Part shown: positions 3,641-64,000 of the stretch, one piece after another
Layout: each line of letters opens with the position of its first letter
Position numbering within the stretch: the first letter of the stretch is position 1
DNA from: Trypanosoma brucei
Taxonomy: Eukaryota
NCBI GenBank assembly: GCA_000002445.1
Contig: CP000067.1
Coordinates: 1-64,000 of the forward strand
Reading direction: 5' to 3'
Length of the DNA stretch: 64,000 nt
Notes under the pieces: model-generated
Databases searched by the model: none
What the model was told of the DNA's origin: nothing
Seen by the model: only the letters and a program-made list of their open reading frames with translations
Program-made: the position numbers and the translations under genes

Positions 3641-3652
3641 TGTATAACAGTA
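3641..3652. repeat. Target-site duplication TGTATAACAGTA (right copy) of RIME #1
   Basis: Identical to 3121..3132 and directly abuts the RIME 5' end at 3640. Confidence 0.85.
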
Positions 3653-32902: not shown

Positions 32903-33230
32903 CGCATGGCTGGGTGTAATTCAGGTCACTACTCATATTGCAACTGGATACCACTCTGGACGGAACTTCCTGCAAGATATTATCGAATCCCCATTACAAC
33001 ATGTGTTGTGTTTGTTTGATGGGTTCACCTGTTACCGTATTGTAAAGACGGACCCAAAAACAACATCCGCGTCGGTGTGTCCAATAGAAATGATGGAAGA
33101 ACTCTCCTGTACTGAAATGGCAATGCTCTTTGCTAGTCGTAAACTTACAACAACAAATAGAAGTGTAGTTGCATCCTATGCTGGCATGCGGTAATGATTT
33201 TCTGCCAATGCATAAAAACTCCACATGATG

Positions 33231-38300: not shown

Positions 38301-40556
38301 AACACAAACACAAACAAATAAACAACCAAACATTTTTAAATGTTGCTGTGAAACGGAAATTTAATCACGGAAAATTGTGGGGCGCACACGTAATGGGCAC
38401 CATGAATGCCTCTTTGAATATTCCTCAATGGATTTTCACCAGCATCATCAACTTACTTTTTGTGTAAAAAAATAATAGAAACAAGACAGAACAGAAAAAA
38501 GAAATAAAGGTACAAATGCATTAATAAACCCAACTCCTCAGCAGGAAATCAAGAACAGGAAGTCACGAAAAGCGTATGGCACATATGATTTTCACCTCTC
38601 AGTTACTTAAGGTGGATCGCATGATTTACCCACCTTCTAAGAACACACCCTCCGAGAGGCCCGATTAAAAGAAAAAAAAACGCTATGACGGTTGAAAAGA
38701 CGTTTTTCATAAACCTTCACTTTATACGTGAGGATGCATAAATAAACAGTGATAACGATGAGAATGCTAACGGAAACAATGACGAACCGTGAGGATTCTA
38801 GAAAAAAAACACATACTTTTACATTAAGGAAACTTAATAAACAACAAAATATAAATATTCCCTACACAGAGGTATAGGGGGTGTTCGCCAACTTTGCAAC
38901 GTTGGCCAAAAAGTATTTAAATGTATCGATCATTCGTGTAGTCAATCAAATAAGAAGTAACATGTACTACACGCACAAAAGCACACTTATAAAGCCTACA
39001 AACCCACTTGCCCCCTTTTAGAGAATACCACTCTCTCGTCAGTGATAAGAGAGGTGATATTAAAAGTATTCCCTTTATAATTATTTCTGGTTCCTCAATT
39101 CGTTGCAACATAACATAACATGCAAAGATGTCGCATCAGGCAGCGGGGCCACCAGCAATAGCGTTTGGTTCATCCTGGGTGATCTCCTTAACAATATCCT
39201 TTTCCATCTTCACTTGAAACTGGTTGATTCTATTCCACAACTCTGTAGTATAATCGCCTCTGCCCCCAACTGGTTCGCACTTCTGCCTCTCCTCGATTGG
39301 CTTGCTGTCACTGTACTGTATGTAAATCAGCTCCCATTTCAAGTTTATTGCGAGCTCATCCCATTCACCAAACAATTGTTTCATTGCCTTGATAAACTTA
39401 TCTACCTTCGTTCGTGTCGTGTGATGCGTTGGTGCCACTGTCGTCTGGAGCAGAACAATTGTTGTTGTAATGATCGCTCTTCCTTCTGTATCAACAGCTG
39501 GCTCAGTTACAAAGAAAAAGGCGTCCACAACGGGGAAATTTCCCTGTGCAGGTCGGTAGAAGCACCCGACCTCGATGTCTTGGCCTGTCGTTTCGGGGTA
39601 AATATGACGAAGTGAAGTTGGAACACGTCCCACGGCATTACCACTTGCCAGAACGGATACATTTGAATCCATTTCTTCTCCAACGCGAGGGAGATACCGC
39701 AGGTGCGTCACAATCGTCTGCACAACATTTCCCATCGTGAAGGCATATACGCCCACATTTTCAAATTCATCAGCGGCCTGCTCTTTTTTCCCACGAAAAC
39801 CCTTTCGAAGGTAATTGTCTCGCATACATGCTGTGTCCGCCCACACTCTCAATTTCTGCTCAATATCAATGGAAACAGCTCTGTTTCTGCATTCTTCTCC
39901 ATTCTCAGTTACAACCCGGACCAATTTAGCCAACCTGTATGTAGTCCCGTCCTCGCGCCATTCAACTTGACCATTCAGCACCTGCATATAGTAACCATCA
40001 TCGCCTCTACTGATTTCTGCCAGTGCCTCATTTATTTCTCTAACGCGGCCCTTGTAGCGTTCGTCACCTTCCAGTACGTGGCGGGCAGTGGGCCCACCTT
40101 CTTAATCCATCCTTATATTTTCTGCCATTCATTCTCAAGGTTTATGATGTGAGCTTCGGTGATTTTACTTTCCTCCAACTTCGACAGCCGCCTCCACGCA
40201 ACCGCAGCCTTCAGTTCCACCTCTTCATAGCAATTGATGCAAAGGAACTCGCAACCCCGTGGTTCCTTCCACTCTTTGTAGTTATTTGGATCTGGAGATG
40301 TCAACACAATTACGGGCCACGTTTCCGGCAAGTCTGCGGGTATGGGTTGGTGCCTGTCTTTCGAAAAGTCGTATATAATATAACCAAGAAGCCATTCGTC
40401 AGCCAAGGCATTGACAGCATCCACTCCATCATTTTCTTTTTCATAGAATACAACCCTTCCCGGATGATCGTTTGTCGCCATGAAGAAAATATATGCCCTA
40501 CCCTTCACAAAATAAGCGATAATCCGCAACAGCTCCGAATCGTAATGCAGCAACCC

Positions 40557-40567
40557 TTGGAGCAGGA
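40557..40567. repeat. Target-site duplication TTGGAGCAGGA (left copy) of RIME #2
   Basis: The identical 11-mer is at 41078..41088. Confidence 0.8.
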
Positions 40568-41077
40568 TTTTTTTTTAGAATTTTCTTCGTGCCTTCGTGA
40601 GAGTTTCCCCCCACTGGCGCGGCCATCAGCCATCACCGTAGAGCCCTGAGATGCTATCGGTCTGGCGACTGTGGCAGAGTCTCCCTTTTTTATTCATCCT
40701 AACACACCCTCTATAATTTTTGTTGTATTTCCGCATATGAACGGAATACAGCAGATGGGGCGAGAAGCCTCCCACCCTGGACTCTCCCAAAGATGCCAAT
40801 TGGCAATCCTTTTTTGGAGGTCCACATCACCGGACAGCAGCATCTTAGTGCGGATGATACTGCTGATGGCACGCTGGCACGTGCCCAGGGACCGACAAAT
40901 GAAAAACGGTGTCCCAGCAAGACGCTGCTGATCCCTGTGCTGTATGATGCCGTAGCCGGAGCACAGCAGTGTTCCCCATGAAAGGAACGCTGCTGGCTCT
41001 TGGCTTCCCCCGATGATACGGGGTACTGGACCCTGGCACCACGTTGAGGTGGCCGGCATCGCCAGGGTTGGAGCAGG
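40568..41077 (-). mobile_element. RIME: RIME retroposon, full length (body about 501 bp plus 9 nt poly(A) at 40568..40576)
   Basis: About 97% identical to RIME #1 along its whole length. It ends with the same CCCTGGCGATGCCGGCCACCTCAACGTGG 5' 79-mer (reverse complement at 41049..41077). It is flanked by an 11 bp direct repeat. Confidence 0.85.
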
Positions 41078-41088
41078 AACGAGCCAAC
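41078..41088. repeat. Target-site duplication TTGGAGCAGGA (right copy) of RIME #2
   Basis: Identical to 40557..40567. Confidence 0.8.
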
Positions 41089-43158
41089 ACCAACTGATTT
41101 CCCAATACCTGCAGTGCCGACGAGGACGCAAGGAATCTGTTTTTCGATCAGCCCTGACTCCAGCCACAAATCCAGCCTCTGCTTCACAAGATACCACACT
41201 CTCATTACCTCTCGACGAATGTACACATCCAGGTCAAACACGTAGTCTCCTGGTTTTTCCGCATCCTCTTGAATTACACTTCGCGGAATGCGGAAACGAT
41301 GATATGGCCAACCCTTCTGTGAGGTGAGCACAGCAATCTCTAAATTACCACGTCAAGGCAGTGGGTCGCACAAATCGTAAGGCGTTTTACTGACATTCAC
41401 CTCCTCTTCTGTCCACAGCTCAGGCTCGCCGTCACAATTACCCACCACCTTCAGGCCAAGAGGTAAATCATTGTGACCCGACTCCACATAACCCCACGTC
41501 GCGCTATAAATGGAGTCGTATACTCCTTTCAGTTCGGCACCACCAGCTGTTTGAGCAGCTCCTCCCAATGCTTCATCGAGTGCATTATTCAACATGTTAG
41601 TGACAATAATTCAAGTCTGCTCTCCATTTCTCAGTCCACGAATATTCACCTGTAACCTGGCCTTTACTTCCTCATTTGCTTGTTTCCAGCGCACGAGATT
41701 CAATATTCCCTCATTCTCATAAAAACCATAGACGCTGACAAAACGTTTGTACACTTGATACTCTGTTGTCGCGAATATTCGATTGAGCGCATTAACGTCA
41801 TTAATATACTCTTCACATCGTTGTACAAACACAGATATTGATACATTATTTTCTTCTTTCACATTGTATCTTGTGCCAAAATTACTTCTCAAAAAATCAT
41901 TCAACATCACATTTCCAGGATGTGGCAGACCATTCAGCAAAACTGCTTCAATGCAGCTGAAAAGTCTCCATTGTGGTTGGTTGTTATTCTCCACTCGTTG
42001 CTGCACTGCTGGAGGTTCCGCATCGTTACGCGCAGCCTCCTCACGCTCTCGTCTCCTTCCCTCAATGTCACCCCTTCCTTCAATAGGAACCTGTTGATTC
42101 ATTTCACTCTCTGAATAATAATCTTAACTGAGTGCGTTGTGTTATTTCCTTTCTTTGTAATATAAATAAAGAATTAAGATGAGGGAATTTAAAATGGACA
42201 CACTTCTAAACCAAATCAAATATACAATCAATGAATATTAGGAATTAATATGGCAGGTGGAAACTATTTATTGAAATTAGGATTCAATACAAATCTTATC
42301 ATGTGTTGGGGCGCCACAGCAACTTAAGCACAGATAAGGTATGACAGTATGAATAAACATTTCTGTTGAGAGGAAAACTCAAACAACAATTCCCAGTTAC
42401 TTCACACCATCATTCCAAAAAAAATAATATACTTATATATATGTATGTATGGAAAAGCAAAAAATAAATAAATGTGGCATTGCCATGAAAAAAAAACAGT
42501 TTCACACGTGTGGTCCAAAAGCTGCATCAGCCAATACGATATCTTGACAGCTTGTCATGCAGTCTTGTCTCAAGAAGAAAATAAAACATTCATCTCTGCT
42601 TTCCGTTAATTGATAAATGAGATCCCATGCTGTGTTAACTCACGTCTCCATTCAAATAGTTGACTCAACGTTGTGACGAAGCAGTGACCAAAAACAATCC
42701 AAATGCAATTCCAAATTTCTTCATATTACGCTTTCAGTTTTATTACACATTTCCCCAACCATTCCGAGTACTAACAGGAATAATTTGGTTCTATCCTAAT
42801 GCATGTGCTTTCTACAGCTCTTTCATTTTGTTATGATCCGCACAAAAATTATATATGTGGTTGTTGATTCGTCCTGTCAATCAAAGTAACAATCATAATA
42901 ATTAATTTTCCCCTTTTCTTCATTTTTTCTATTAGCACATGTGCACCTTGGTGAGATCACTTTCACTCATTTGCACTGATTGGTCAACACCATTTAGTTC
43001 GTCATTCAACACACTCCCTTACATGTCCTCTTCTCACCATTTATAACCCACACGAGCAGCATCAAATATAAATTGTGAAGAGGTATGAGATCACAAGAAC
43101 TCGCTCTCATTGAGAAGGTTGGATGCGTCATATATATATATAATCATGTAATCCCTTT

Positions 43159-46047: not shown

Positions 46048-48337
46048 TCACCTTCGCTTTGCTTTCATCGCTCGCCTCCCCTGTGCCTTTTCTGCCTCCT
46101 GAAGATCTACCATCAGATGAGCATTCATTTCGTCCCCAAACGTTACTTGGAATTGTTCAATCATTTCCCAAAATGTTTGAAGTTGTTTCGCCTTCCTGGC
46201 AGGGATAACTTTGTCGTCGTTCGCCTCACATTTTTGCCAATTGGTAATCACACCGCCATTAACTCCATTCATGTATATCATCTCCCAAGCCATGTTACCC
46301 GAAAACGTGTTCCAGTCCGAAAAATATCCTTTAATTCTCTCCGTGAACGCATTCAACTTTGTCGCAGTGGTGGAGTGACAGTCCGACTTGGTCACGTGTA
46401 AAAGGACAAGTGTCTTTGGTTTTGGCGTTTTTTTCGCTTGCCTTCCAGGTGACATCGTGAAGCGCCCCTCAACGAAAAAAAAGCCATCCACCAAGGGTTC
46501 ATAGGCTGTGGCGGGAGTGTAGAGCACCATGTATTCGCAGCGTTCAATTGGGTTCTGCCTGGCTGCTGGTAAGACTTCCCATCCAGTGAGGCACAACTGC
46601 TGAGGAGTCATGCTACTCAGTATACTTTGTGTTCCCCTCAGCTTCTCAGGCGGATGGAGGTGTCTCAAGTTCTTTGCCATCATCTCGAGAACTCGAGGAT
46701 TGAGCACCGCAAACAACGCATGGCTTTCAAATGAAATGAAAGCGGCACTTCTGTTTCTCATCATGAGCTGGGACTCTGCTACTTTTCGCGCAGTAAAGCC
46801 AAGCACCGCCCAAAGTAGCAAGGTCCTTATGTGCCCGGAAAGCTCTTTGCTGCGATATGAATCTCCGGAAACTCCATTTCCACGCGAACGGACTATCTGT
46901 ACCATCTGGTACGACACCTTTTCAGTTTGCCAGTTCATTGATGACCTAAAAAGATCCTCGCAGCCATTTTTATCATTAGCATCGAGGCCTCTTATTTTTT
47001 TTGCCACCGCCTCCATTCGCCCTCCGTGCCCCACAGCGTCGTAAACGGCACGAGGCACCGGGCCGGCCACTGCAATACGCTGCTTTACAGTTTCCCATTC
47101 GTCCTCAAGATCTCCTTTTAACTTTTCTTTTGCTGTGTTGGATACCTTTTTACCTAATGCTACTGATAAATTCTTCCATGCCACAAATGCCTTCATGTCA
47201 CCCACATCATCGTAGTTTATAATAATATGGCGGCTTCCCATGTCCTTTTCCCACTCCTCATAATGTGCCGTATCCGGGGAAGTGAGGACAGTTATACCCC
47301 AACCCAAATGGCACAGCTCATCAGGCGGTATAAGTAGTTCGTTACCGATGTCGACAATGATGTGACCTCTTTTTTTTCTTATTGTTTTTATGAAGGTAAC
47401 GGCGGAATCGGTGCTTCTGTCTTCCTCAACCCTCCCCTCTTCTCCGGGTTTCTTGTTATGTATTAGGTAAGCGATTTTTCCCACGAAATATGCAACAACA
47501 TCAAGCATTCCTTCATTGAAGTGAAGCAGTGAATGAAGCAAAAATGATCCAAGGCCACATGTTTTACCAATACCAGGTGTACCAATAACAATATGTATCG
47601 GTGGTCTCTGTGCTTTTTCCACCCACCTTCCTTGCAGCCCTCGTTGAATTATATACCACACGCGCATAATTTCACGACGGATGTATACATGTTTAAGTTT
47701 TTCCCCGCACCTCTCAGTGTGGCCCAATGCAAACCTGTTGTATGGCCAACCTTTCTCCGAAGTGAGAACAAAAATCTCCAAACCATCAGGCCTCTCCTCA
47801 ATATCTGCATCGACATTCGTAGGATCAGGAGTTACATCCACCTCCTCCTTCGTCCACATGCGCGGTGGTCTTCCATCAAACACTTTCATTCCAAGTGGCT
47901 CCGCATCATAACCCGACATCACATAACTCCATTTTGCATTATAAATGGAATCGTATAATTTCTCTTTGAGAGACTTGCCCTCTCCGGTTTCTGATGGGTT
48001 CTCGTTTTTCCGCTCTCTTGGCGGCTATCACTGCAGCATCCAACATTCCCCTCGCCACGGGACCAACAAATTCCCTTATTTGCGCTGTTGCCCTCTCTTC
48101 CCATTGCTGTATGTCGCTAATCTCATTACGAGGCAGATAAATAACTGCCCTCAGTAATTGAAACTCCTCAAGCCGCTGTATTCTTCCTAGAATCCTGGCA
48201 TCTAAAATAAATCTTTTGTGATTCTTAACAAGCAAAAACATGGCTACATTCTGTGTGTCATACGTGTTTGAGAAGTATTGATCCAAAAAGTCATGCAGTT
48301 TTATTTCATCCAAACTCGCATAATCTTCCAGCAGCAC
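46048..48337 (-). pseudogene. RHS: Chimeric RHS pseudogene: N-terminally truncated type-A leader, a type-B leader segment, then a type-D core, with a frameshift at the junction
   Basis: ORF 47939..48337 ends ...VGPVARGMLDAAVIAAKRAEKRE (type A, cf. 4120..4160). It then switches frame at about 48000 into NENPSETGEGKSLKEKLYDSIYNAKWSYVMSGYDAEPLG (type-B leader, cf. 51310..51370), and continues as ORF 46048..47922 with P-loop IGTPGIGKTCG. Confidence 0.8.
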
Positions 48338-49435: not shown

Positions 49436-51463
49436 TTACCTTCGGCCCGCAGCAGCCACCGCAAGCATTTTGATAACTATGTTATCCTCATACTGCACAT
49501 GGTACTGCTGCACATTGTTCTTCCAGAATCCCTTCACAAACTGGTGACTGCGGTGCTTTGCCTTACCCTGTGTAATTTCACACTTCTGCTCAGACCTCAT
49601 CGCTGTGGATTCGAAGTGCTGAACGTAAATGATTTCCCAGTGAAACATCTCAGTAATTTCCTCCAACTGCTCAACGGTAGCCTCATTCTGGTGACCCCCT
49701 CCCTCCGCACTTGGCAAGAGGGATTGTAACAAATGAATGAATTCGTCGGTTTTTGTGTCATGTCTGCTGGCAACAGTAAACTGCAACAACACAATAGTTT
49801 TCTTTCCTGTGGTTCCTGAAGCCTGTGCAGCCTCCTTGTCATCAACAATAAAGAATGCATCCGCTACGGGGTAGTTGGGAATGCACGGCACATATAATTC
49901 CACCGGAGCCCCCTCCGACTCAGCCCAGTTGATGTCACCTGGCACTGTGTTTGTTCGACCAACTTTGAGGAGGTCATCCCTTACGTGTTGCAAAATGCTT
50001 TTGCGTGTCCTCATGCGTCTGGCCCTTTCATTTGCTGGAAGTTTCGTTATTAAACTTACGAAGCAAGTTAACACTCTGGGGGAACACAAATATTTAATTG
50101 CATTCTCCTCAAAATAAAGCCCGATGGCAGATGCATTCCGCATCATACCAGTTGTCAGTGCCCACTCCTCAGCAATGCCGGAAAACACTACATTCAAAAT
50201 TCTTTTCTTTATAGATTCAGAATGCGCCACGCAGACATACGTGTCAAAGGAGTTTCCTTCTCGAGCTTTGATACGAACGATCTTCACGAGCTTATGTGAT
50301 GCATCATTGTCCCTCCATTCCCCACAGTTGTCCAGTACCTTAGTATATATTCCGTACTTGTTACCTGCTACGATACTCCCCAATTCCCCGTCCACTGCAG
50401 TAAGCTCCTGTCCATACATTACTTCGTCAAACACATAACGAAGTGAAGGTCCGACACGCTCCACACGGTTCTCATACATGTTCCACTTTTCCCTCAACTC
50501 AACATGCGTGGCTTGAGGAAACAGCTTGAGTCCCATACGTGAGAAGAAAGCCCGCATTTCACTCATTTCCCAGCAGTTAACAACAATAAAAGCGCCTTTA
50601 CGTTGCTTTTGCCAGCTGTCAAAATTTCTCAAATTGGGTGAACTGATCAAAATGCTTCCCCATTTTGGAGCCACATCTGCCGGTGGCTGCTCGCCTTTGT
50701 TGACGAAGTCATAAATAATATAACCACGTGTATTAGATGATATAACCTTCATAAACGTTATAGCCGCTTCTTTACTGTACTCCCTAACTCTGCCAACGCC
50801 ACCATTATCCGATTTTTCAAATATATATGCGGCTACACCACGGAAATACGCAACAACAGGCAACTCTTCCGCATCATAATGCAATAACTTGTAGAGGATA
50901 AAAGAACCCAAATTCTGAGATTTGCCAATCCCAGGATTACCAATGGCAACGTATGATCGTGGTAAATAAAGACATCCCGGTATAACACGCTGGGTACGCC
51001 ATAATTCAATTCCACTCCTTACAACATTCCATACGCGGAGCTCCTCTCTGCGAATGAATATGTCACTGTTACTTCCCCGGGCAAAGCCTGTATATGGCCA
51101 ACCCATTTCTGAGGTAAGAACCAACAGCTCAACTCCTTCCGTGCGTTCCGGCTTCTGTTCAAGAGTTTCCTCAATTTTGGGGACAACATTAAGTTCCTCA
51201 TCTTTCCACATCAAACCTTCATTGGGCATTCCATCAACCAACGTCATTCCCAATGGTTGAGTTCCATCGTCGATAATAATATAACTCCATTTCGCATTAT
51301 AGGTGGAATCGTATAATTTCTCTTCGAGAGACTTGCCCTCTCCGGTTTCTGATGGGTTCTCGTTTTCTCGGCTGGCTTGTCTCTTCATTGGGCGGTACGC
51401 ACCATTCAACCATCCATTTAAAACATTCCGAGTATCTCCCACACTACCGCCGTTCTGATTCAT
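49436..51463 (-). CDS. RHS: RHS protein, apparently intact (675 aa); type B N-terminus with a distinct core
   Basis: Uninterrupted ORF with P-loop IGNPGIGKSQNLGSFILYKLLHYDAEE. Its first 50 aa and about 440 bp upstream are nearly identical to the 34907..36946 copy. Confidence 0.85.
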   Translation of the reverse strand: MNQNGGSVGDTRNVLNGWLNGAYRPMKRQASRENENPSETGEGKSLEEKLYDSTYNAKWSYIIIDDGTQPLGMTLVDGMPNEGLMWKDEELNVVPKIEETLEQKPERTEGVELLVLTSEMGWPYTGFARGSNSDIFIRREELRVWNVVRSGIELWRTQRVIPGCLYLPRSYVAIGNPGIGKSQNLGSFILYKLLHYDAEELPVVAYFRGVAAYIFEKSDNGGVGRVREYSKEAAITFMKVISSNTRGYIIYDFVNKGEQPPADVAPKWGSILISSPNLRNFDSWQKQRKGAFIVVNCWEMSEMRAFFSRMGLKLFPQATHVELREKWNMYENRVERVGPSLRYVFDEVMYGQELTAVDGELGSIVAGNKYGIYTKVLDNCGEWRDNDASHKLVKIVRIKAREGNSFDTYVCVAHSESIKKRILNVVFSGIAEEWALTTGMMRNASAIGLYFEENAIKYLCSPRVLTCFVSLITKLPANERARRMRTRKSILQHVRDDLLKVGRTNTVPGDINWAESEGAPVELYVPCIPNYPVADAFFIVDDKEAAQASGTTGKKTIVLLQFTVASRHDTKTDEFIHLLQSLLPSAEGGGHQNEATVEQLEEITEMFHWEIIYVQHFESTAMRSEQKCEITQGKAKHRSHQFVKGFWKNNVQQYHVQYEDNIVIKMLAVAAAGRR

Positions 51464-51905
51464 TTCACTGTCCGAATAATAATCTTAATTGAGTGTGTTG
51501 TGTTATTTCCTTTCTTTGTAACATAAATTAAAAAAGAGATTAAAAATAGGGGAATATAAAAAGATACACTTCTAAACCAAATTACAATCAATGAATATTA
51601 GGAATTAATATGGAAGATGAAAACTATTTATTGAAATTAGGATTCAATACAAATCTTATCATGTGTTGGGGTGTCACAGCAACTTAAGCACAAATAAGGT
51701 ATGACAGTATGAATAAACATTTCTGTTGGGAGTAAAACTCAAACAACAATTCCCAGTTACTGCACACAATCATTTCAGAAAAAATAATATACTTACATAT
51801 ATATGGGTATGGAAAAGCAAAAAAAATAAATAAATGTGGCATTGCCATGAAAAACAGCATATAATAGCTTTACTGATAAGCTATGCAAAACGTAGAATAC
51901 TCGGT
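51464..51905. repeat. Conserved RHS 5' flank, type B (copy of 36947..37390)
   Basis: Almost base-for-base identical to 36953..37390, through ...gcatataatagctttactgataagctatgcaaaacgtagaatactcggtt. Confidence 0.85.
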
Positions 51906-54844
51906 TAAAGGTATTCATGCGCATGGTGAAGGATCTTTACATTAAGAAATAATACAAACAACTATCAGAACTTGCGCATAATCTCACATGAGCCGTCACT
52001 CGGAATGACGTTTCCATTACTTATTAACTTTGCAACAACAATTTTAATACATACTCTCACACTCCTAATCAGTACACAGTGTGCAAATGAAAGTACGAGA
52101 TATCAAAACATATACAATAATAATCGCCGTAAAAAGTAAAACCAATGAAAATAAAATCTTATACATCAAAGAGGAACCTCTCTCACCTGACGAACAAATG
52201 CTGCTCACTTTCTTTATTCTTTAAGTGATCCTGTGTTTTTTTTCTTGCGGCCATGGAACCATGAATACAAAGAACATATGAAGGCATGAAAGGTATTTGT
52301 TTTTGTTTTGGTATTGGAGCACCTTGCCATGCGTCTGATCTTGTGCCTTGGTGAAACTCAAAAGAAACGAAAGGCTCACGGAAGGGAACAAATATATTTG
52401 TGGGAATAACAATCCAATATTAGGCCTCTTTTAAGGAGTGTGCTGAGTGGAATAATGGTGAAAAAGAAGTATTGAAAATGTATGCTATATGGACAAATGC
52501 CTTACAATGTTTTCTCTCTATCTGAAACATATGGAATATATGGAATATATAAGGAACAAGAAACATAGGGAATATATGAAGAATAAGGAAATATATGATA
52601 TATTCTGAAGTGCCGGATGTGCTTGTGCGTGTCTTCGTATGTGTTCTCTGCTTTATATATCACTAAATATTTTACACATTTCATTTTACTTTGCGTATGC
52701 TAATAGCTTGTTTTTCCTTGCATCAATTCATGGAAATATCTATTAGAGAAATAATAATTTACTTTTTCTCTTCCTTTCCCGCTAATGTTTCACCGCCTAT
52801 TTTCATTCCTTATAAATACTGTAAATTTCTTTTGTTACTGTAACTATTTCCAAAAAAAATGTAATGGAGACACTTTAAGCATTACATATCATAATATCTC
52901 TAAACTCCTTCTATGTTATGTTAAGTTACAAATATTTTCATTCCCATTAATTTTATTCAGCAGAACATACAAAACACCCTCAAAAGTCCTTCCTTCCTTT
53001 CTTTTTCTTCAACATCATAATATACCTTGTGGAATATACAAATATATAATAACCATAAATGTGTTATATATCTTCACAACATCAGAAGCTATACAACAGA
53101 ATTGTGTTCCTCAAGAAGCAGTGGTTGTGTTTCCTTTTACTTTCTCTCAGAGTCAAACTAATTAATTAATTACTAATAACATCCTCCAAAGATATTGCTT
53201 CTATTTTCTTGGATCACTCAGCAGCGTAACACCGGAGTATTGAAATAAAGAGTCACAGTTCAAAGAAAATAAAACAGTAAAAAAAATAAACAGAGGCTCG
53301 CACCTTCACAATTGGTTGCATTTGGATATATCAAACGCATTTATACACTTGCATTCCTTGTGTTTCTTTTTTGGGGGAGGGTAAATGCAAAATGCAAAAT
53401 GTATCAAGTTGACGAGTAGAAGAAATACAACACTTGATATAATTTCACTTACATATAAGCTTTCGTTTCCCACTTTATTCTAATTCATAATATTTAGATA
53501 GCAATGTAATGGAGCATTCAGCCATAAACATTTTAACCATAAATATAGTAACTAATGTGTGAATGGTAACCCATGGTGATACATTCCATATGGAACAATA
53601 CCACATTGTTAAATATACGCATGGAATTAAAACTATAGCACTAAATTGAAAATGAAAAATTAGAAGAGAGAAAGATATGAATTATCAAAAGAGGCATATT
53701 CTTCACTAACATGCACTTGTTTCAATACAATCATAATTTCAAATTACTTTAAATGATAAGTGGCCCAATGTCCTGAAACGACACAATAACAATGATTTCA
53801 TTATAACAACTGTAAAATAATGATATGCAATAAAGTAAATAATATAAATAAATAAAAATACAGCAAGCACTGCAGAATATATTTTACTGCTATAACCATT
53901 TGCAAACAAATGAATAGCTTTGCTCATTGGAAGAAAATAATTAAATTCAAACTTCCTATGATTCTGCCAGTGTTGGTGAGCTACGTGTGGGACTCAAAAA
54001 AAACAAAAGTTTATTTTAAATAAATATAAAGAAAAGAAAAACTTCTCATGAAACCATAAGGGTACCCCTGTGAGTTATGTGCTGCTGTAAAACATAGTTA
54101 ACTTCACAACCCTCAAGAAAGAAAGAAATAATAAAAGTAAAATGTAAACAAAAATAAAGTTAAGATATATAATACACTTATGCTTAACTAAATGTAACGT
54201 GTCATACGTAAAGGTGATAAAATAATAATCACAATGTAATGTTATCAATGCTTTCCTTCGCAAACGAAAACTGTCACATCTCAATGTGTTCTTCCAAATT
54301 AATATAAAGGAACCAGCTGTGTTTGTATAATATTCTACAATGTCATTTGGCATTGTCCAATGCTCACTCAAAAAACTCCTTCGTTTTGTTGCGATGTAGC
54401 TGTTGACAGTGTTGTGCTCTTTTTCTTTTTTATTTTTTAACATACAACTATGGGTTTCCGTAATCCTCTCAATATTGCTGCAGTTCCCATCATTAAAAAA
54501 AAAACAAAAGAAATCCATCAAAATAGCGTAACTGGAGTATAAGATGTTGTAGAGAACAATGTATTTATTTTGAGTAATGGAACTCTGTGAGGTCGAAGAC
54601 AATAATCCGAAACGATTGAACCGAAACTTTCATTGCCCCATGCCTGTAAAATAATAATTTAATTGCTCAACGCATATTCTCATCCTGCAGTAAGTAGTTC
54701 AAACAATTTCGTACACACATGAAACACTGGAAGGAAAAGAAAACATATACATTGCATAAACCTTTACTAAATGAAAATACTATTTTTGGTATCGAGTTCA
54801 CCATGTGTTACAGAGCCACATTTCACTAACATGCTAAAGCATAA

Positions 54845-56542
54845 TTAATTCATCATCATATTTCTGATCATCAGCGATAGGGCTTGACATTTGTATGATT
54901 CGACTCCTCCAACATTTCCTTTTACTCTTACAATCTTCACCAACTTGTTCATAACTTCATCGTTCCGCCAGTCAGCCGTGTGTTCAATAATATCATTATA
55001 GCAATATTTATCAGATTTCTTCATAGCTCTCAACGCATCATACACACTTTTCAGATGCCACTCATAACAACCTAAACCAAATATATAACGAGGCAGCGGT
55101 CCAATTAAATTAATGCGTTCCTCCACTATTTTCCACTCATCTTCAATTTCTCTCTTCAATTCGTATCTTCTTCTGTTGGACACCTTTTCTCCTGTATGTA
55201 TTGACAGCTTTTTCCATGCCATAAATGCCTTCATGTCACGCACATCATCGCAGTTCATAATAATTTGGTGGCCTCCCTTATTTGCACTCCACTCATCAAA
55301 ATGGTCACTTTTAGGGAAAGTGAGGAAAGTTACACTCCAAACATCAGAGGGAAGTTGAGTGTATAGTTGCTCCATTGCATACCTTGTGTCCATAACAATG
55401 TGCCCTTTGCTTTCAGATTTCATTTTATTTATGGCAGCAACGGCAGACTCCCAGCGTTCGTATTCATCAACAGTCCCTCTTTCCTCACCCTCTCGGTTGT
55501 ATATCAGGAAGGCAGAATCCTCCAAGAAATATGCAACAACATCAAGCATTCCTTCATTGAAGTGAAGCAGTGAATAAAATAAAAATGATCCAAGGCCACA
55601 TGTTTTACCAATTCCAGACGTGCCAATAATAATATGTATTGGTGGACCCTCAGCTGTTGCTTCCATCCACCATGCTTTCAGACCTCGTTGGATTATATAC
55701 CACACGCGCATAATTTCACGACGGATATATACATGCTTGCAAATTGTCTTGCATCTCTCAGTGTAACCCAATACAAACCTGTTGTATGGCCAACCCTTCT
55801 CCGACGTAAGAACAAAAATCTCCAAACCATTGGATCCTTCCTTTACTCTTGCATCAACATCGGCAGTTTTAGGAGTTATATTCAATTCTGCCTCCGTCCA
55901 TATGCGCTGCGGCCTTCCATCGAATACCTTCATTCCAAGTGGCTCCGCATCATAACCCGACATCACATAACTCCATTTCGCATTGTAAAAAGAATCGTAA
56001 ACATCTCGACAACTTTTGACAGAAACACGCGGCAGAAACCATACTTCTGATTCCGTGACAGCATATTGTACTGCATTCAACCTTCCCCTTGCTACAGGGC
56101 TAATGGAGTTTTTCACCTCTGGAGTTGCACCGTTCACCCAATCGCTGATGGTATAAATTTTTTCCTCTTTAAGGTAGTTTATCCACATTTCTGTTTCAGG
56201 CAGTTTCTCAACAATCCTTTTGTACTCCCTGAACTCATAAAGCCCCTGTATATCCTCAAGAATCTCGGCATCCTTAATATAATCTTCAGGATTCTTAACA
56301 AACGTTTCCATTGACACATTCACTGTGTTATACGTGTTTGAGAAGCATTGATTCAAAAAGTCATGCAGATTCATTTTGGGCAATGTCGCATATTCTTCCA
56401 GCAAAAAATCCCTCACTGTACTGTTCATTTTACAATCAGAAAATCTTTTATATCTCTGCGGCATCTGTGGAGGCTGAGCAGGAGGAGGTGCTACATGTTC
56501 ATCCCGTGGCCTCCTCATGGCTCCTTCAATGTTATTTGGCAC
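54845..56542 (-). CDS. RHS: RHS protein copy, C-terminally truncated (565 aa; stop falls about 250-290 codons before the position where the 46048-type core continues). It is likely a pseudogene or truncated variant.
   Basis: Type-A-like N-terminus MPNNIEGAMRRPRDEHVAPPP..., P-loop IGTSGIGKTCG, and it ends ...LVKIVRVKGNVGGVESYKCQALSLMIRNMMMN* at a TAA. The ancestral upstream ATG (cf. ATGTCAAGAGCAAAT at 4715) reads ATATCAAGAGCCAAT here. Confidence 0.7.
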   Translation of the reverse strand: MPNNIEGAMRRPRDEHVAPPPAQPPQMPQRYKRFSDCKMNSTVRDFLLEEYATLPKMNLHDFLNQCFSNTYNTVNVSMETFVKNPEDYIKDAEILEDIQGLYEFREYKRIVEKLPETEMWINYLKEEKIYTISDWVNGATPEVKNSISPVARGRLNAVQYAVTESEVWFLPRVSVKSCRDVYDSFYNAKWSYVMSGYDAEPLGMKVFDGRPQRIWTEAELNITPKTADVDARVKEGSNGLEIFVLTSEKGWPYNRFVLGYTERCKTICKHVYIRREIMRVWYIIQRGLKAWWMEATAEGPPIHIIIGTSGIGKTCGLGSFLFYSLLHFNEGMLDVVAYFLEDSAFLIYNREGEERGTVDEYERWESAVAAINKMKSESKGHIVMDTRYAMEQLYTQLPSDVWSVTFLTFPKSDHFDEWSANKGGHQIIMNCDDVRDMKAFMAWKKLSIHTGEKVSNRRRYELKREIEDEWKIVEERINLIGPLPRYIFGLGCYEWHLKSVYDALRAMKKSDKYCYNDIIEHTADWRNDEVMNKLVKIVRVKGNVGGVESYKCQALSLMIRNMMMN

Positions 56543-59500
56543 TTGTGGGTTTGCGTTATTTCCTTGTGGAGCTGCGGGGCTATTGGCTCTTGATATAACT
56601 ATTTTAACAACCGTTATTAACTTAACTATCTTTTCTTAACTTTACTTTTTTAACTGAAATTATAAATAGCTGAAGTAAAGCAGCCGATGAGGAAAACAAA
56701 AGTGTGTGAATTGTGTAACATAATATCAAATGTGATAGAGCAAGATAATATTTATTTACCGCTGTTTGCATAATATGATATCATAATGTATTTGATATTA
56801 AGGAAAACAATTTCAAAATATAGTAGCTGTTAATAAATTATTTCCCTTGCTTCATCATTATGTGCCAAATATAATTAATTTCCTGTATCATTCTTTTTAA
56901 ACCATATATAATATGGAAACAAAAAATATTACTGCCTCATACACCTGAATAAACACTTTGTATAGAGTTGACAGTTGTGAAAGGTCAAATTCTATTAATT
57001 AAAATCATTTTTTAAAAATAAACAATAAGCAGAAATATATATGGATATTAATGAAAGGGGAAAAGAATATCGGCACGAGGTATGGATATACACACATTAG
57101 TACAGACACATGAATACACAACTGTTTTCCTGCTATTTCCTCCTTTCTGCCAATACGAGGCATTCAGTTGTATTGAAGGAACTCGTTGAAATATAAATCA
57201 TTTTTCTAACCCATATACTTACCACCGGAATAACGTATTGAATAATCTCTGTATGATATTTATGGAATTGATAATTCTTTTTTCCCCTTTTATAACGTGG
57301 AATGCTGATGCAGCTCTTGGTAGTGTTTCACCAGCAGTCTTCATTGAGATTCCATGCGGTGTCGTAGCATTGTGAGGAGAGTTCTGGGCAGAGGAGACCC
57401 GGGTTCCGCAATGTTGGATTCAGTGTGGGGCCGACATTGGCTCACGATAGGACTCATGAAGGAGCTTGTGAGAGTTCTCTTTTCATGCGCAATCCGAAAG
57501 AGTAGAGGACAATGAATTTATGTCTCCGGTAAAAGAGAGGTTCATCACGTTGTTCACTATATTTGCTTCCGCCTCGTTCATTTAGTGGTTGTTGTGACCC
57601 TTTTTTCTGGGGTGGGGGATTTCTGTCCCTCTTTTCCTCAATGCTACCGCTTTGTCTCGAGTTTTGTGTGTCTGCTTTTGTGCCTTGGTGAAACTCAAAA
57701 GAAACGCTAGCGAAAGGCTCACAGAAGTTAATAAATATATTTGTAGAAATAATCCAATAATGGACCTCTTTTGAGGAATGGTGAGTGAAAAAAATGGTGC
57801 AAAAAAACATTGAAAATTTATGCCACATGGACAAGTGCTTTATAATGTTCCCACTGTGTGGAAATATGGAATATATAAGGAACATATGAGAGGCAGTGAA
57901 TAGTTATAGAACAAACGGAATATATGGAGAACAAGAAACGTAGGGAATATATCAAATGTATGGTATATATGGAATGTATGAGAGGCAAAAAGTATGGAAA
58001 AACTTTGTTAATTGAATATACATTCATGTATTCTCAGGTGCTGGATGTGTTTGTGCGTGTATTTATATGTATGTGTTCTCTGCTTTATATATCACTAAAT
58101 ATTTTACACATTTCATTTTACTTTGCGTATGCTAATAGCTTGTTTTTCCTTGCATCAATTCATGGAAATATCTATTAGAGAAATAATAATTTACTTTTTC
58201 TCTTCCTTTCCCGCTAATGTTTCACCGCCTATTTCCATTCCTTATAAATACTGTAAATTTCTTTTGTTACTGTAACTATTTCCAAAAAAAATGTAAGTAA
58301 GACAGTTTAAGCATTACACATCATAATATCTCCAAACTCCTTCTATGTTATGTTAAGCTACAAATATTTTCATTCCCATTAATTTTATTCAGCAGAACAT
58401 ACAAAACACCCTCAAAAGTCCTTCCTTCCTTTCTTTATTTTTTTTTTTGAAATCATAATATATCTTGTGGAATATACAAATATATAATAACCATAAATGT
58501 GTTATATATCATCAAAACATCAGCAGCTTCACGACATAATTGTGTCCTTCAATAAGCAGTGGTTGTGTTTCCTTTTATTTTATCTCAGAGTCAAACTAAT
58601 TAATTAATTACTAACAGCATCCTCCAAAAATGTTTCTTCTATTTTCTTGGATCACTCAGCAGCGTAACACCGGAGTATTGAAATAAAGAGTCACAGTTCA
58701 AAGAATACAAAACAGTAAAAAAAATAAACAGAGGCTCGCACCTTCACAATTGGTTGCATTTGGATATATCAAACGCATTTATACACTTGCATTCCTTGTG
58801 TTTCTTTTTTGGGGGAGGGTAAATGCAAAATGTATCAAGTTGACGAGTAGAAGAAATACAGCACTTGATATAATTTCACTTACATATAAGCTTTCGTTTC
58901 CCACTTTATTCTAATTCATAATATTTAGATAGCAATGTAATGCAGTATTCAGCAATAAACATTTTAACCATAAATATAGTAACTAATGTGTGAATGGTAG
59001 CCCATGGCGATACATTCCATATGGAACAATACCACATTGTTAAATATATACATCGAATTAAAACTATAGCACTAAATTGAAAATGAAAAATTAGAAGAGA
59101 GAAAGATATGAATTATCAAAAGAGGCATATTCTTCACTAACATGCACTTGTTTCAATACAATCATAATTTCAAATTACTTTAAATGATAAGTGGCCCAAT
59201 GTCCTGAAATGACACAATAACAATGATTTCATTATAGCACCTGTAAAATAATGATATGAAATAAAATAAATAATAAAAATAAATAAAAATACAGCAAGCA
59301 CTGCAGAATATATTTTACTGCTATAACCATTTGCCAACAGATGAATAGCTTTGCTCATTGGAAGAAAATAATTAAATTCAAACTTCCTATGACTATGCCA
59401 GTGTTAATGAGCTACGTGTGGGACTCAAAAAAAAAAACAAAAAGTTTATTTTAAATAAACATGAAGAAAAGAAAAACTTCTCATGAAACCATAAGGGTAT

Positions 59501-60276
59501 CCGTGTGAGTTATGTGCTGCTGTCAAACATAGTTAACTTCACAACCCTTAAGAAAGAGAGAAATAATAAAAGTAAAATGTAAACAAAAATAAAGGTAAGA
59601 TATATAATACACTTATGCTTAACTAAATGTAACATGTCATACGTAAAGGTGATAAAATAATAATCACAATGTAATGTTATCAATGCTTTCCTTCGCAAAC
59701 GAAAACTGTCACATCTCAATGTGTTCTTTCAAATTAATATAAAGGAACCAGCTGTGTTTGTATAATATTCTACAATGTCATTTGGCATTGTCCAATGCTC
59801 ACTCAAAAAACTCCTTCGTTTTGTTGCGATGTAGCTGTTGTCAGTTGTGCTCTTTTTTTATTTTATTTTTTAACATACAACTATGGGTTTCCGTAATCCT
59901 CTCAATATTGCTGCAGTTCCCATCATTAAAAAAAAACAAAAGAAATCCATCAAAATAGCGTAACTGGAGTATAAGATGTTGTAGAGAACAATGTATTTAT
60001 TTTGAGTAATGGAACTCTGTGAGGTCGAAGACAATAATCCTAAACGATTGAACCGAAACTTTCATTGCCCCATGCCTGTAAAATAATAATTTAATTGCTC
60101 AACGCATATTCTCATCCTGCAGTAAGTAGTTCAAACAATTTCGTACACACATGAAACACTGGAAGGAAAAGAAAACATATACATTGCATAAACCTTTACT
60201 AAATGAAAATACTATTTTTGGTATCGAGTTCACCATGTGTTACAGAGCCACATTTCACTAACATGCTAAAGCATAA

Positions 60277-61974
60277 TTAATTCATCATCATATTTCTGAT
60301 CATCAGCGATAGGGCTTGACATTTGTATGATTCGACTCCTCCAACATTTCCTTTTACTCTTACAATCTTCACCAACTTGTTCATAACTTCATCGTTCCGC
60401 CAGTCAGCCGTGTGTTCAATAATATCATTATAGCAATATTTATCAGATTTCTTCATAGCTCTCAACGCATCATACACACTTTTCAGATGCCACTCATAAC
60501 AACCTAAACCAAATATATAACGAGGCAGCGGTCCAATTAAATTAATGCGTCCCTCCACTATTTTCCACTCATCTTCAATTTCTCTCTTCAATTCGTATCT
60601 TCTTCTGTTGGACACCTTTTCTCCTGTATGTATTGACAGCTTTTTCCATGCCATAAATGCCTTCATGTCACGCACATCATCGCAGTTTATAATAATATGG
60701 TGGCCTCCCTTATTTGCACTCCACTCATCAAAATGGGCACTTTTAGGGAAAGTGAGGAAAGTTACACTCCAAACATCAGAGGGAAGTTGAGTGTATAGTT
60801 CCTCCATTGCATACCTTGTGTCCATAACAATGTGCCCTTTGCTTTCAGATTTCATTTTATTTATGGCAGAAACGGCAGACTCCCAGCGTTTGTATTCATC
60901 AACAGTCCCTCTTCCCTCACCCTCTCGGTTGTATATCAGGAAGGCAGCATCCTCCAAGAAATATGCAACAACATCAAGCATTCCTTCATTGAAGTGAAGC
61001 AGTGAATAAAATAAAAATGATCCAAGGCCACATGTTTTACCAATTCCAGACGTGCCAATAATAATATGTATTGGTGGACCCTCAGCTGTTGCTTCCATCC
61101 ACCATGCTTTCAGACCTCGTTGGATTATATACCACACGCGCATAATTTCACGACGGATATATACATGCTTGCAAATTGTCTTGCATCTCTCAGTGTAACC
61201 CAATACAAACCTGTTGTATGGCCAACCCTTCTCCGACGTAAGAACAAAAATCTCCAAACCATTGGATCCTTCCTTTACTCTTGCATCAACATCGGCAGTT
61301 TTAGGAGTTATATTCAATTCTGCCTCCGTCCATATGCGCTGCGGCCTTCCATCGAATACCTTCATTCCAAGTGGCTCCGCATCATAACCCGACATCACAT
61401 AACTCCATTTCGCATTGTAAAAAGAATCGTAAACATCTCGACAACTTTTGACAGAAACACGCGGCAGAAACCATACTTCTGATTCCGTGACAGCATGTTG
61501 TACTGCATTCAACCTTCCCCTTGCTACGGGGCTAATGGAGTTTTTCACCTCTGGAGTTGCACCGTTCACCCAATCGCTGATGGTAAAAATTTTTTCCTCT
61601 TTTAGGTAGTTTATCCACATTTCTGTTTCAGGCAGTTTCTCAACAATCCTTTTGTACTCCCTGAACTCATAAAGCCCCTGTATATCCTCAAGAATCTCGG
61701 CATCCTTAATATAATCTTCAGGATTCTTAACAAACGTTTCCATTGACACATTCACTGTGTTATACGTGTTTGAGAAGCATTGATTCAAAAAGTCATGCAG
61801 ATTCATTTTGGGCAATGTCGCATATCTTTCCAGCAAAAAATCCCTCACTGTACTGTTCATTTTCCAATCAGAAAATCTTTTATATCTCTGCGGCATCTGT
61901 GGAGGCTGAGCAGGAGGAGGTGCTACATGTTCATCCCGTGGCCTCCTCATGGGCCCTTCAATGTTATTTGGCAC
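60277..61974 (-). CDS. RHS: RHS protein copy, C-terminally truncated (565 aa); tandem duplicate of 54845..56542
   Basis: About 98% identical to 54845..56542 and shares the same premature TAA. Confidence 0.7.
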   Translation of the reverse strand: MPNNIEGPMRRPRDEHVAPPPAQPPQMPQRYKRFSDWKMNSTVRDFLLERYATLPKMNLHDFLNQCFSNTYNTVNVSMETFVKNPEDYIKDAEILEDIQGLYEFREYKRIVEKLPETEMWINYLKEEKIFTISDWVNGATPEVKNSISPVARGRLNAVQHAVTESEVWFLPRVSVKSCRDVYDSFYNAKWSYVMSGYDAEPLGMKVFDGRPQRIWTEAELNITPKTADVDARVKEGSNGLEIFVLTSEKGWPYNRFVLGYTERCKTICKHVYIRREIMRVWYIIQRGLKAWWMEATAEGPPIHIIIGTSGIGKTCGLGSFLFYSLLHFNEGMLDVVAYFLEDAAFLIYNREGEGRGTVDEYKRWESAVSAINKMKSESKGHIVMDTRYAMEELYTQLPSDVWSVTFLTFPKSAHFDEWSANKGGHHIIINCDDVRDMKAFMAWKKLSIHTGEKVSNRRRYELKREIEDEWKIVEGRINLIGPLPRYIFGLGCYEWHLKSVYDALRAMKKSDKYCYNDIIEHTADWRNDEVMNKLVKIVRVKGNVGGVESYKCQALSLMIRNMMMN

Positions 61975-64000
61975 TTGTGGGTTTGCGTTATTTCCTTGTG
62001 GAGCTGCGGGGCTATTGGCTTTTGATATTACAATTATAATAATAATTATTATCTTAACTATCTTTTCTTAACTTTACTTTTTTAACTGAAATTATAAATA
62101 GCTGAAGTAAAGCAGCCGATGAGGAAAACAAAAGTGTGTGAATTGTGTAACATAATATCAAAAGTAATAGAGCAAGATAATATTTATTTACCGCTGTTTG
62201 CATAATATGATATCATAATGTATTTGATATTAAGGAAAACAATTTCAAAATATAGTAGCTGTTAATAAATATTTCCCTTACTTCATTATCATGTGCCAAA
62301 TATAATTAATTTCATGTATCATTTCTTTTTAAACAACGAATAATATGGAAACAAAAAATATTACTGCCTCATACACCTGAATAAACACTTTGTATAGAGT
62401 TGACAGTTGTGAAAGGTCAAATTCTATTAATTAAAATCATTTTTTAAAAATAAACAATAAGCAGAAAAATATATGGATATTAATGAAAGGGGAAAAGAAT
62501 ATCGGCACGAGGTATGGATATACACACATTAGTACAGACACATGAATACACAACTGTTTTCCTGCTATTTCCTCCTTTCTGCCAATACGAGGCATTCAGT
62601 TGTATTGAAGGAACTCGTTGAAATATAAATCATTTTTCTAACCCATATACTTACCACCGGAATAACGTATTGAATAATCTCTGTATGATATTTATGGAAT
62701 TGATAATTCTTTTTTCCCCTTTTATAACGTGGAATGCTGATGCAGCTCTTGGTAGTGTTTCACCAGCAGTCTTCATTGAGATTCCATGCGGTGTCGTAGC
62801 ATTGTGAGGAGAGTTCTGGGCAGAGGAGACCCGGGTTCCGCAATGTTGGATTCAGTGTGGGGCCGACATTGGCTCACGATAGGACTCATGAAGGAGCTTG
62901 TGAGAGTTCTCTTTTCATGCGCAATCCGAAAGAGTAGAGGACAATGAAGTTATGTCTCCGGTAAAAGAGAGGTTCATCACGTTGTTCACTATATTTGCTT
63001 CCGCCTCGTTCATTTAGTGGTTGTTGTGACCTTTTTTTTTTCTGGGGTGGGGGATTTCTGTCCCTCTTTTCCTCAATGCTACCGCTTTGTCTCGAGTTTT
63101 GTGTGTCTGCGTTTGTGCCTTGGTGAAACTCAAAAGAAACGCTAGCGAAAGGCTCACAGAAGGTAATAAATATATTTGTAGAAATAATCCAATAATGGAC
63201 CTCTTTTGAGGAATGGTGAGTGAAAAAAATGGTGCAAAAAAACATTGAAAATTTATGCCACATGGACAAGTGCTTTATAATGTTCCCACTGTATAGAAAT
63301 ATGGAATATATAAGGAACATATGGGAGGCAGTGAATATTTATAGAACAAACGGAATATATGGAGAACAAGAAACGTAGGGAATATATCAAATGTATGGTA
63401 TATATGGAATGTATGAGAGGCAAAAAGTATGGAAAAACTTTGTTAATTGAATATACATTCATGTATTCTCAGGTGCTGGATGTGTTTGTGCGTGTATTTG
63501 TATGTATGTGTTCTCTGCTTTATATATCACTAAATATTTTACACATTTCATTTTACTTTGCGTATGCTAATAGCTTGTTTTTCCTTGCATCAATTCATGG
63601 AAATATCTATTAGAGAAATAATAATTTACTTTTTCTCTTTCTTTCCCGCTAATGTTTCACCGCCTATTTTCATTCCTTATAAATACTGTAAATTTCTTTT
63701 TGTTACTGTAACTATTTCCAAAAAAAATGTAATGGAGACACTTTAAGCATTACATATCATAATATCTCTAAACTCCTTCTATGTTATGTTAAGTTACTAA
63801 TATTTTCATTCCCATTAATTTTATTCAGCAGAACATACAAAACACCCTCAAAAGTCCTTCCTTCCTTTCTTTATTTTTTTTTTGAAATCATAATATATCT
63901 TGTGGAATATACAAATATATAATAACCATAAATGTGTTATATATCTTCACAACATCAGAAGCTTCACGACATAATTGTGTTCCTCAAGAAGCAGTGGTTG

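Follow-up and report, generated by a model that had tools for sequence, protein, structure and literature searches.

A tandem array of short RHS3-subfamily genes close to the left end of chromosome 4 in Trypanosoma brucei brucei

The first 64,000 nucleotides of contig CP000067.1 (hereafter the window) end inside a repeat whose RHS genes stop early and have lost the ATG of their relatives, which raises the question of whether a damaged gene was amplified here or whether the copies represent a distinct short form of RHS. The locus forms part of the RHS cluster close to the left end of chromosome 4 of T. brucei brucei TREU927, and it is very probably a known, annotated tandem array of short RHS3-subfamily genes. 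The array and its proteins are already present in the reference annotation, and nothing about them is out of the ordinary.

The repeat is arranged head to tail with a period of 5.43 kb, beginning near 52335 and continuing past the end of the window at 64000, so that the window holds 2.15 units ((64000-52335)/5432). In a self-BLASTN alignment of 6069 columns, 52519-58565 and 57948-64000 were 96.7% identical, while ungapped repeat families gave a start-to-start spacing of 5431-5438 bp, a tandem repetition far beyond chance. There are thus at least two units of the same orientation and constant period, each with a gene (one 557-aa RHS3-type gene plus ~3.7 kb of AT-rich spacer), and a third has begun. 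Unit 1 (52335-57947, minus strand) lies at the 3'-terminal edge of the array and is delimited by the edge of homology, its alignment to units 2 and 3 beginning at ~52333-52340. Unit 2 (57948-63382, minus strand), placed by repeat spacing and self-BLASTN, is complete at 5435 bp, and unit 3 (63383-64000, minus strand), placed by self-BLASTN and the three-way overlap, is cut by the window end and contributes only its distal 3' flank. The original prediction of a 5.43 kb tandem amplification starting at 52340, visible as a 5.4 kb periodicity on self-comparison and with an incomplete third unit, was therefore correct in each of these respects.

Divergence is greatest in this edge unit. Over the final ~190 bp (52335-52518) its identity to the other units is only ~75%, and 45 of the 61 sites that vary in the three-way overlap of 618 bp are private to unit 1, with unit 3 being 97.2% identical to unit 2 and 92.3% identical to unit 1. 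Close to this edge lies a degenerate GGAATATAT-type short repeat block, located by TRF and alignment at 52527-52597 in unit 1 and at about 57863-58025 and 63298-63460 in units 2 and 3. The block of unit 1 is shorter by 37+8+45 = 90 bp, in agreement with the predicted difference of about 100 bp between units, although the absolute lengths first given for the blocks were too generous. The remainder of the 3' flank of copy 1 (52598-54844, minus strand) is AT-rich and non-coding. Spacer ORFs of 175 aa (54075-54602), 126 aa and 84 aa had no Pfam match, and the longest of them, absent from unit 2, was taken as spurious; the spacer contains no ORF of reverse-transcriptase size, and no Rfam family matched 51400-64000 at E <= 0.1.

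The window covers the 3' part of the array, namely two complete CDSs and the start of the third unit. RHS copy 1 is 100% identical to the annotated protein XP_844176 (P0054), and copy 2 to XP_844177 (P0053). Both fall in one 90% cluster with XP_844178-180, all five being labeled 'RHS protein, putative' by NCBI, with consecutive accession numbers, lengths of 557, 557, 557, 557 and 572 aa, intact ORFs and distinct protein sequences. Because XP_844178-180 cluster with the two proteins encoded here and the accession numbers run on consecutively, the array probably has five copies, presumably adjacent to one another. The chromosome 4 gene Tb927.4.300 is annotated as RHS3 and its transcript appears in RNA-seq tables (PMC7952579); we infer that the array proteins are linked to this identifier. 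Matches to 'Tb927.4.300' in papers on cullins are irrelevant, as the string is merely the prefix of Tb927.4.3000.

Subtelomeric repeats misassemble easily, and an array of this kind could have been collapsed or over-expanded in the reference. Such an artefact is extremely improbable here, even though the T. b. equiperdum contig that offers a comparison itself ends within the array. With differences at 3.3% of sites, indels and the 90-bp length difference between them, the units are distinct loci rather than duplicated reads; the annotation holds five different proteins; and the T. b. equiperdum sequence (L001), an independent assembly from another subspecies, has two copies with the same spacing of ~5.4 kb, adjoining a HECT gene, and the same alternation of ATG and ATA at the former start.

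The minus-strand ORFs at 54845-56542 and 60277-61974 encode 565 aa when counted from a GTG. From the first ATG, the RHS3-type CDS of copy 1 occupies 54845-56518 (stop TAA at 54847-54845) and that of copy 2 occupies 60277-61950 (stop TAA at 60279-60277), and each is unbroken over 557 codons, with no frameshift or internal stop relative to the RHS3 subfamily. Their membership of the RHS family follows from Pfam matches above the gathering score, to RHSP (PF07999; 6.8e-55, 187 bits against a cut-off of 25), RHS_N (PF20445; 1.8e-31, 109 bits against 21) and DUF7578 (7e-19, 67.7 bits against 27), together with a Walker A motif, GTSGIGKT, at residues 299-306, of which G299, G302, G304 and K305 are invariant in 50 family members.

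The reading frames of both copies end in ...SLMIRNMMMN followed by TAA, as had been predicted, and the full-length RHS genes of the window do extend past this point, by ~236-252 residues, the end of the short copies being equivalent to residue ~443 of 679. What does not follow is that the stop is premature. It is the C-terminus that defines an RHS subfamily (PMC6393297, PMC3683921), with RHS1-6 classed in this way and RHS7 added later (PMC6393297). Proteins from other contigs (P0002, P0003, which is Q8WPQ6 and is named RHS3, P0004 and P0006) end at the same residue, in ...LSLMIRNMMM[N/S], at 57-63% identity to the array copies. As the same terminus is found in RHS3 proteins this distant, the stop predates the array and defines the subfamily: judged from these comparisons, it is the native end of RHS3, far older than the array, and is not to be counted as a lesion. 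Assignment of the copies to RHS3 rests on this C-terminus and on their greater closeness to RHS3-named proteins, namely 57-61% identity at 100% coverage compared with 36-52% to RHS1-, RHS2- and RHS4-type proteins. Downstream of the stop, neither tblastn nor a six-frame reading of the 3' flank revealed a remnant of the C-terminal domain; a resemblance of ~23 read-through codons to the RHS gene at 49436-51463 was too weak for interpretation.

The alternative is that the copies are dead pseudogenes, RHS genes deprived of C-terminal domain and start codon, amplified passively by subtelomeric recombination and encoding nothing functional. This is unlikely, if less so than an assembly error. It would suit a family in which, among 118 annotated genes, 40 are full length and about two thirds are pseudogenes (PMC6393297), and the Pfam RHSP match does end at model position 248 of 312, so that part of the Pfam-defined P-loop domain is missing. 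On the other hand, the array copies keep the Walker A motif and all residues that are invariant in the family, the ORFs of all five TREU927 copies are intact, and the predicted fold is confident right up to the terminus. The copies retain the N-terminal domains, the P-loop NTPase and a helix-rich module ending in a β-hairpin, and inspection of the AF2 model gave helices at 482-511 and a hairpin at 527-546 of winged-helix-like appearance. In this model the terminus would coincide with a domain boundary, and the short form would be without just one part of the longer RHS proteins, their C-terminal α/β domain, which the literature describes as restriction-endonuclease-like. Further support for a living gene comes from reports of RHS3 transcripts (PMC7952579, PMC3683921), including those of Tb927.2.1180, an expressed RHS3 gene and siRNA target (PMC3683921).

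Selection points the same way with respect to the stop. Against an RHS3 paralogue gene in L002 (P0005), dN/dS was 0.46 at a dS of 0.56, from 135.5 synonymous and 281.5 non-synonymous changes; P0005 is itself a differently truncated RHS3 fragment adjoining a VSG-like gene and is of no use for comparison of the 3' flank. Of the two possibilities raised initially, a distinct short RHS isoform is therefore the one that stands, whereas the amplification of a truncated, possibly dead RHS after its lesions arose finds no support as regards the stop, given this ratio and the terminus shared with 57-63% identical paralogues.

The start codon is a different matter, since here the predicted mutation is real. 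The ancestral start, ATGTCAAGAGC at 4715, corresponds to ATATCAAGAGCC at 56596 and ATATCAAAAGCC at 62028, and both window copies have ATA (56596-56594 and 62028-62026) where related RHS genes have ATG; the two copies thus carry the same start change and the same stop, not different lesions. The former first 26 codons of copy 1 (56519-56596, minus strand), recognized by comparison with the gene at 4715, are still open and in frame and are presumably now 5' UTR; those of copy 2 lie at 61951-62028 on the same strand. Self-BLASTN also showed, for a stretch of copy 1 that takes in the 5' flank, the former leader and ~125 nt at the beginning of the CDS (56394-57199, minus strand; 61828-62631 in unit 2), 76.7% identity to the matching part of the RHS gene at 4507-5288. 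For the 557-aa proteins, the start in the reference annotation is the next ATG in frame, 26 codons further downstream. A polypyrimidine tract with AG dinucleotides at ~56700-56650 marks a likely trans-splice acceptor region, and the 181 nt from there to the in-frame ATG (56699-56519) contain no ATG.

The loss of ATG in the internal units counts for the pseudogene explanation, and the in-frame ATG preceded by 181 ATG-free nucleotides counts against it: as read from the open frame, the change need not inactivate the gene. Initiation would move to this downstream ATG and the product would lose 26 N-terminal residues. In TREU927, as in T. b. equiperdum, the ATG survives in the 5'-most array copy; the equiperdum sequence L001 has ATG in its first copy and ATA in its second. 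That first equiperdum copy also carries a frameshift, which would favor decay but could be a long-read indel error. Because the ATA is common to the internal units, it spread with, or within, the amplification, and the contrast between ATA in the internal copies and ATG in the 5'-most copy is a small marker of array homogenization.

How the copies diverge bears on the origin of the array. A comparison of units 1 and 2 gives 16 mismatches over the 1674 bp of the CDS, which has no indels, as against 134 mismatches and 10 indel events over the 3755 bp of non-coding sequence; the missing CDS indels were tried as a sign of constraint, and calculation found them not significant once the lower overall CDS divergence was allowed for. 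Copies 1 and 2 differ by 14 non-synonymous and 2 synonymous changes, and over four DNA copies 19 codons have amino-acid-changing and 7 have silent differences. Substitutions within the array look near neutral, and the corresponding dN/dS of about 0.7-1.8, indistinguishable from neutrality, is a point for the pseudogene reading. Mosaic patches occur among the copies. The CDS varies less than the spacer, silent divergence is far below that of the spacer, and the edge unit has diverged most, all of which fits the most likely origin of the array, unequal recombination followed by homogenization through gene conversion, in the course of which the ATG-to-ATA change would have spread among the internal units and left the 5'-most unit with its ATG.

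The same numbers can be read as the mark of a new functional variant. The internal copies would then be neofunctionalized RHS3 proteins, starting at Met27, lacking the nuclease-like domain and evolving fast under diversifying selection, for example as modulators (regulators or antagonists) of the full-length RHS NTPase-nuclease proteins; if so, the ATA would be a fixed, conserved feature shared by T. b. brucei and T. b. equiperdum. This is improbable, more so than pseudogenes. The 14:2 ratio exceeds the ~64% of non-synonymous changes expected at the family-level dN/dS (binomial P ~0.04), identity to other RHS3 proteins is only ~60%, and the ATA is conserved in two subspecies. However, the numbers are small, pooling over four copies brings the ratio near neutral, and the mosaic patches indicate gene conversion over selection. 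For an annotated RHS3 array, the preferred reading, the locus matters little beyond correct bookkeeping.

The RHS multigene family of T. brucei, its RHS3 subfamily included, was reportedly set out by Bringaud et al. in 2002, and the short RHS3 form is said to have been described since then. Members of this subfamily (e.g., UniProt Q8WPQ6) share with the array copies the Pfam domain set, the identical C-terminal end ...QALSLMIRNMMM[N/S] and a length class of 557-590 aa, compared with 670-860 aa in other subfamilies, and RHS3-labeled proteins are their best matches. The array copies differ in that their identity to these proteins makes them a divergent RHS3 clade, and in that the change from ATG to ATA has cost the internal copies their first 26 residues (MSRANSPAAPQGNNANPQ...). 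A parallel in organization is the RHS7 array Tb55 on chromosome 7 (Tb927.7.2010/2030; Jackson 2007, PMC1855330), likewise a single-subfamily tandem array in a polycistronic unit. In both arrays coding and flanking histories differ, indicating gene conversion, although Tb55 belongs to another subfamily and chromosome and expression of RHS7 is reportedly confined to the salivary glands of the tsetse fly. Tandem arrays have been discussed as a dosage device, with the RHS7 array as an example (PMC1855330), and because trypanosome transcription is polycistronic, copy number would be a likely means of setting dosage at chromosome 4 too.

The Crinkler-RHS (CR) architecture, as summarized in PMC5289972 from Zhang et al. 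2016, combines a P-loop NTPase, an HTH and a restriction-endonuclease-fold domain. The RHS3 copies have the P-loop NTPase core, the winged-helix-like segment of their AF2 model would be a candidate for the HTH, and they stop before the α/β (REase-type) domain, so that, if the CR model holds, they would lack the proposed nuclease module.

The 5.43 kb head-to-tail repeat at the right end of the window is a known, annotated tandem array of RHS3, a known short subfamily of the retrotransposon hot spot (RHS) proteins. Self-BLASTN of the window aligned 52519-58565 with 57948-64000 at 96.7% identity over 6069 columns, and ungapped repeat families gave a start-to-start spacing of 5431-5438 bp between units, in line with the 5.4-kb periodicity described in the original prediction. 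That description placed the start of the array at 52340, which was matched by a three-way alignment of the left ends, where the homology of unit 1 to units 2 and 3 starts at about 52333-52340; it also proposed at least 2.2 units with the window ending inside the third, and 2.15 were measured. A short repeat block was said to differ in length between units, and indeed 90 bp (37+8+45) of the degenerate GGAATATAT-type block are missing from unit 1 (three-way alignment and TRF rows). Both spacer copies keep an ORF of 143/144 aa (57454-57885 and 62886-63320, minus strand), which includes an in-frame one-codon indel; the Pfam scan of the 143-aa copy gave no match, and the ORF is low-complexity and probably not a gene.

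Two minus-strand ORFs in units 1 and 2 (54845-56542 and 60277-61974, 565 aa each when counted from a GTG) encode the RHS copies of the array, which match the Pfam models RHSP (PF07999, 6.8e-55), RHS_N (PF20445) and DUF7578 (PF24466). The protein search yielded a T. brucei brucei TREU927 protein of 557 aa with 98% identity, whose 90% cluster takes in five TREU927 proteins numbered consecutively from XP_844176 to XP_844180 (557, 557, 557, 557 and 572 aa). Translated from the first ATG, copy 1 (54845-56518) is 100% identical to XP_844176 and copy 2 (60277-61950) to XP_844177; thus, the window is the reference genome itself, and both copies are annotated protein-coding genes of TREU927. The accession order makes three more units past the window end very probable. 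The particulars reported in the original prediction all stood as observations, and its interpretation held only in part.

Both ORFs close with ...SLMIRNMMMN and then the same TAA, as had been noticed, and this stop had been taken either for a lesion that preceded the amplification or for the end of a distinct short RHS isoform. The nearest relatives beyond the array are four RHS3-type proteins (P0002, P0003, P0004 and P0006 of the protein search, P0003 being UniProt Q8WPQ6, named RHS3), which are 576-590 aa long, are located on other contigs, share 57-63% identity over the full length and stop at the identical alignment position, ...QALSLMIRNMMM[N/S]; such an end point speaks against the lesion and for the isoform. 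The same C-terminal end occurs in 5/5 array copies and in both copies from T. b. equiperdum. Because C-termini define the RHS subfamilies (PMC6393297; PMC3683921) and the RHS3-type relatives share this one, the short end is the hallmark of RHS3 rather than damage that arose in this unit. Other RHS subfamilies do continue beyond it, as claimed, for about 236-252 residues in the alignment. No remnant of the C-terminal domain was found 3' of the TAA in any frame, where there is AT-rich non-coding sequence alone; a read-through likeness of about 23 codons to one full-length RHS was dismissed as too weak. Comparison with the gene of P0005, an RHS3 paralogue (locus L002), gave a dS of 0.56 and a dN/dS of 0.46, with 135.5 synonymous changes observed and about 88 expected under neutrality, which places the short ORF under purifying selection through most of its history.

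The AF2 model of a full-length RHS of the window (34907-36946, pLDDT 72) consists, in order, of an N-terminal module, the P-loop core, a helical region, a beta-hairpin (412-432), long helices and a C-terminal alpha/beta domain (about residues 490-650), and the RHS3 terminus corresponds to residue ~443, directly past the hairpin. The model of copy 1 (pLDDT 77) is confident up to the final residues and ends with helices (482-511), a hairpin (527-546) and a short helix; the terminal helices and hairpin look like a winged helix. Crinkler-RHS proteins combine an NTPase, an HTH and a restriction-endonuclease-fold domain, according to Zhang et al. (2016) as cited in PMC5289972, and on that reading RHS3 would be an NTPase plus a putative HTH that, unlike them, is without the nuclease-type domain. 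By eye, the C-terminal domains of full-length RHS proteins (34907-36946, 39136-39987, 46048-47922 and 49436-51463) share a conserved ...P(V/L)VD(A/G)FFFV ... LLQ(F/T)T... motif, which would fit the restriction-endonuclease (PD-(D/E)xK) fold proposed for Crinkler-RHS.

The loss of the ancestral start codon in both units was likewise genuine: ATGTCAAGAGC at 4715, in another RHS gene, has its counterparts in ATATCAAGAGCC at 56596 and ATATCAAAAGCC at 62028, so that copies 1 and 2 share an ATG-to-ATA change. The 26 former codons downstream are still open and in frame. The stretch between the polypyrimidine/AG region (~56700-56650) and the in-frame ATG at 56518 (181 nt, 56699-56519) is free of ATG triplets, and it is at 56518 that the annotation places the start of the 557-aa proteins. 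XP_844180 (572 aa) begins MSRANSPAAPQGNNANPQ... and has therefore kept the ATG. In T. b. equiperdum (locus L001), two copies about 5.4 kb apart adjoin a HECT ligase gene, of which the HECT-adjacent one reads ATGTCAAGAGCC and the following one ATATCAAGAGCC; homology of the first to the array units begins only ~65 bp upstream of its start codon, and the DNA farther upstream is unique. Thus, the ancestral start survives in the 5'-most copy, and ATA is the allele of the internal units in two subspecies, as expected if one variant spread via unequal exchange or gene conversion. This split is the sole detail for which we know of no earlier description, and a minor one. A frameshift interrupts the ATG-bearing equiperdum copy (L001 4486-6236) after ~95 codons, and its gene call therefore begins at an internal Met (447 aa); either a genuine pseudogene or an indel error of long-read sequencing could account for this. 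The L001 contig ends within the array.

Units 1 and 2 differ by 16 mismatches in 1674 bp of CDS, with 0 indels, and by 134 mismatches and 10 indel events in 3755 bp of non-coding sequence. At synonymous sites they diverge far less than in the spacer (2 changes in 341 sites), a sign that the coding part was homogenised more recently, rather than of constraint on the protein. In keeping with this, most changes within the array are non-synonymous: copies 1 and 2 are separated by 14 non-synonymous and 2 synonymous changes, and four array copies by 19 amino-acid-changing codons versus 7 silent, a within-array ratio that is indistinguishable from neutrality. Such near-neutral substitution is what would favor reading these particular copies as pseudogenes, but this reading is disfavoured by the five intact ORFs, the retained NTPase motifs, the conserved subfamily terminus and the reference annotation as genes. 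Where the three units overlap, the outlier is the terminal unit 1 (45/61 variable sites are private to it), and XP_844180 shares an 11-residue indel patch with canonical RHS3 and one equiperdum copy, which indicates mosaic conversion. Both features fit concerted evolution, which has also been described for the chromosome 7 array of RHS7 genes (PMC1855330).

Tb927.4.300 on chromosome 4, annotated as RHS3, has a transcript in the RNA-seq tables of RBP6-induced development (PMC7952579), and expression is documented for another RHS3, Tb927.2.1180, a major target of siRNAs (PMC3683921). RHS2, RHS4 and RHS6 have been tied to transcription by RNA polymerase II and to the export of mRNA (PMC6393297), and tandem arrays of T. 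brucei are read as a means to higher dosage where transcription is polycistronic (PMC1855330).

The array lies in surroundings typical of T. brucei RHS clusters, with intact and broken RHS genes, an LRR-protein gene split into two ORFs, an adenylate-cyclase fragment and large segmental duplications; Pfam found RHS domains in four other ORFs or ORF groups of the window. Two independent RHS pseudogenes on the minus strand (1682-4715 and 39136-42102) share a break point just past the RHSP model start: their N-terminal ORFs stop at model positions ~20-22, and the next ORF resumes at position 38 and 209, respectively. This common site may correspond to the known hot spot of RIME/ingi insertion or to a footprint of it. 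Large dispersed duplications inside the cluster relate 1-3130 to 33230-36358 (3.1 kb, 91% identity) and 36764-37390 to 51281-51906 (0.6 kb, 98% identity), and different RHS subfamilies have common 5' flanks. On the plus strand, the adjacent ORFs of 519 and 918 aa at 18596-22941, both rich in leucine-rich repeats, probably represent a single ESAG8/LRRP-like gene with one interruption. The 184-aa ORF at 14278-14832 on that strand matches receptor adenylate cyclases in their periplasmic-binding-protein-like domain alone and is probably a fragment of a GRESAG4-type pseudogene.
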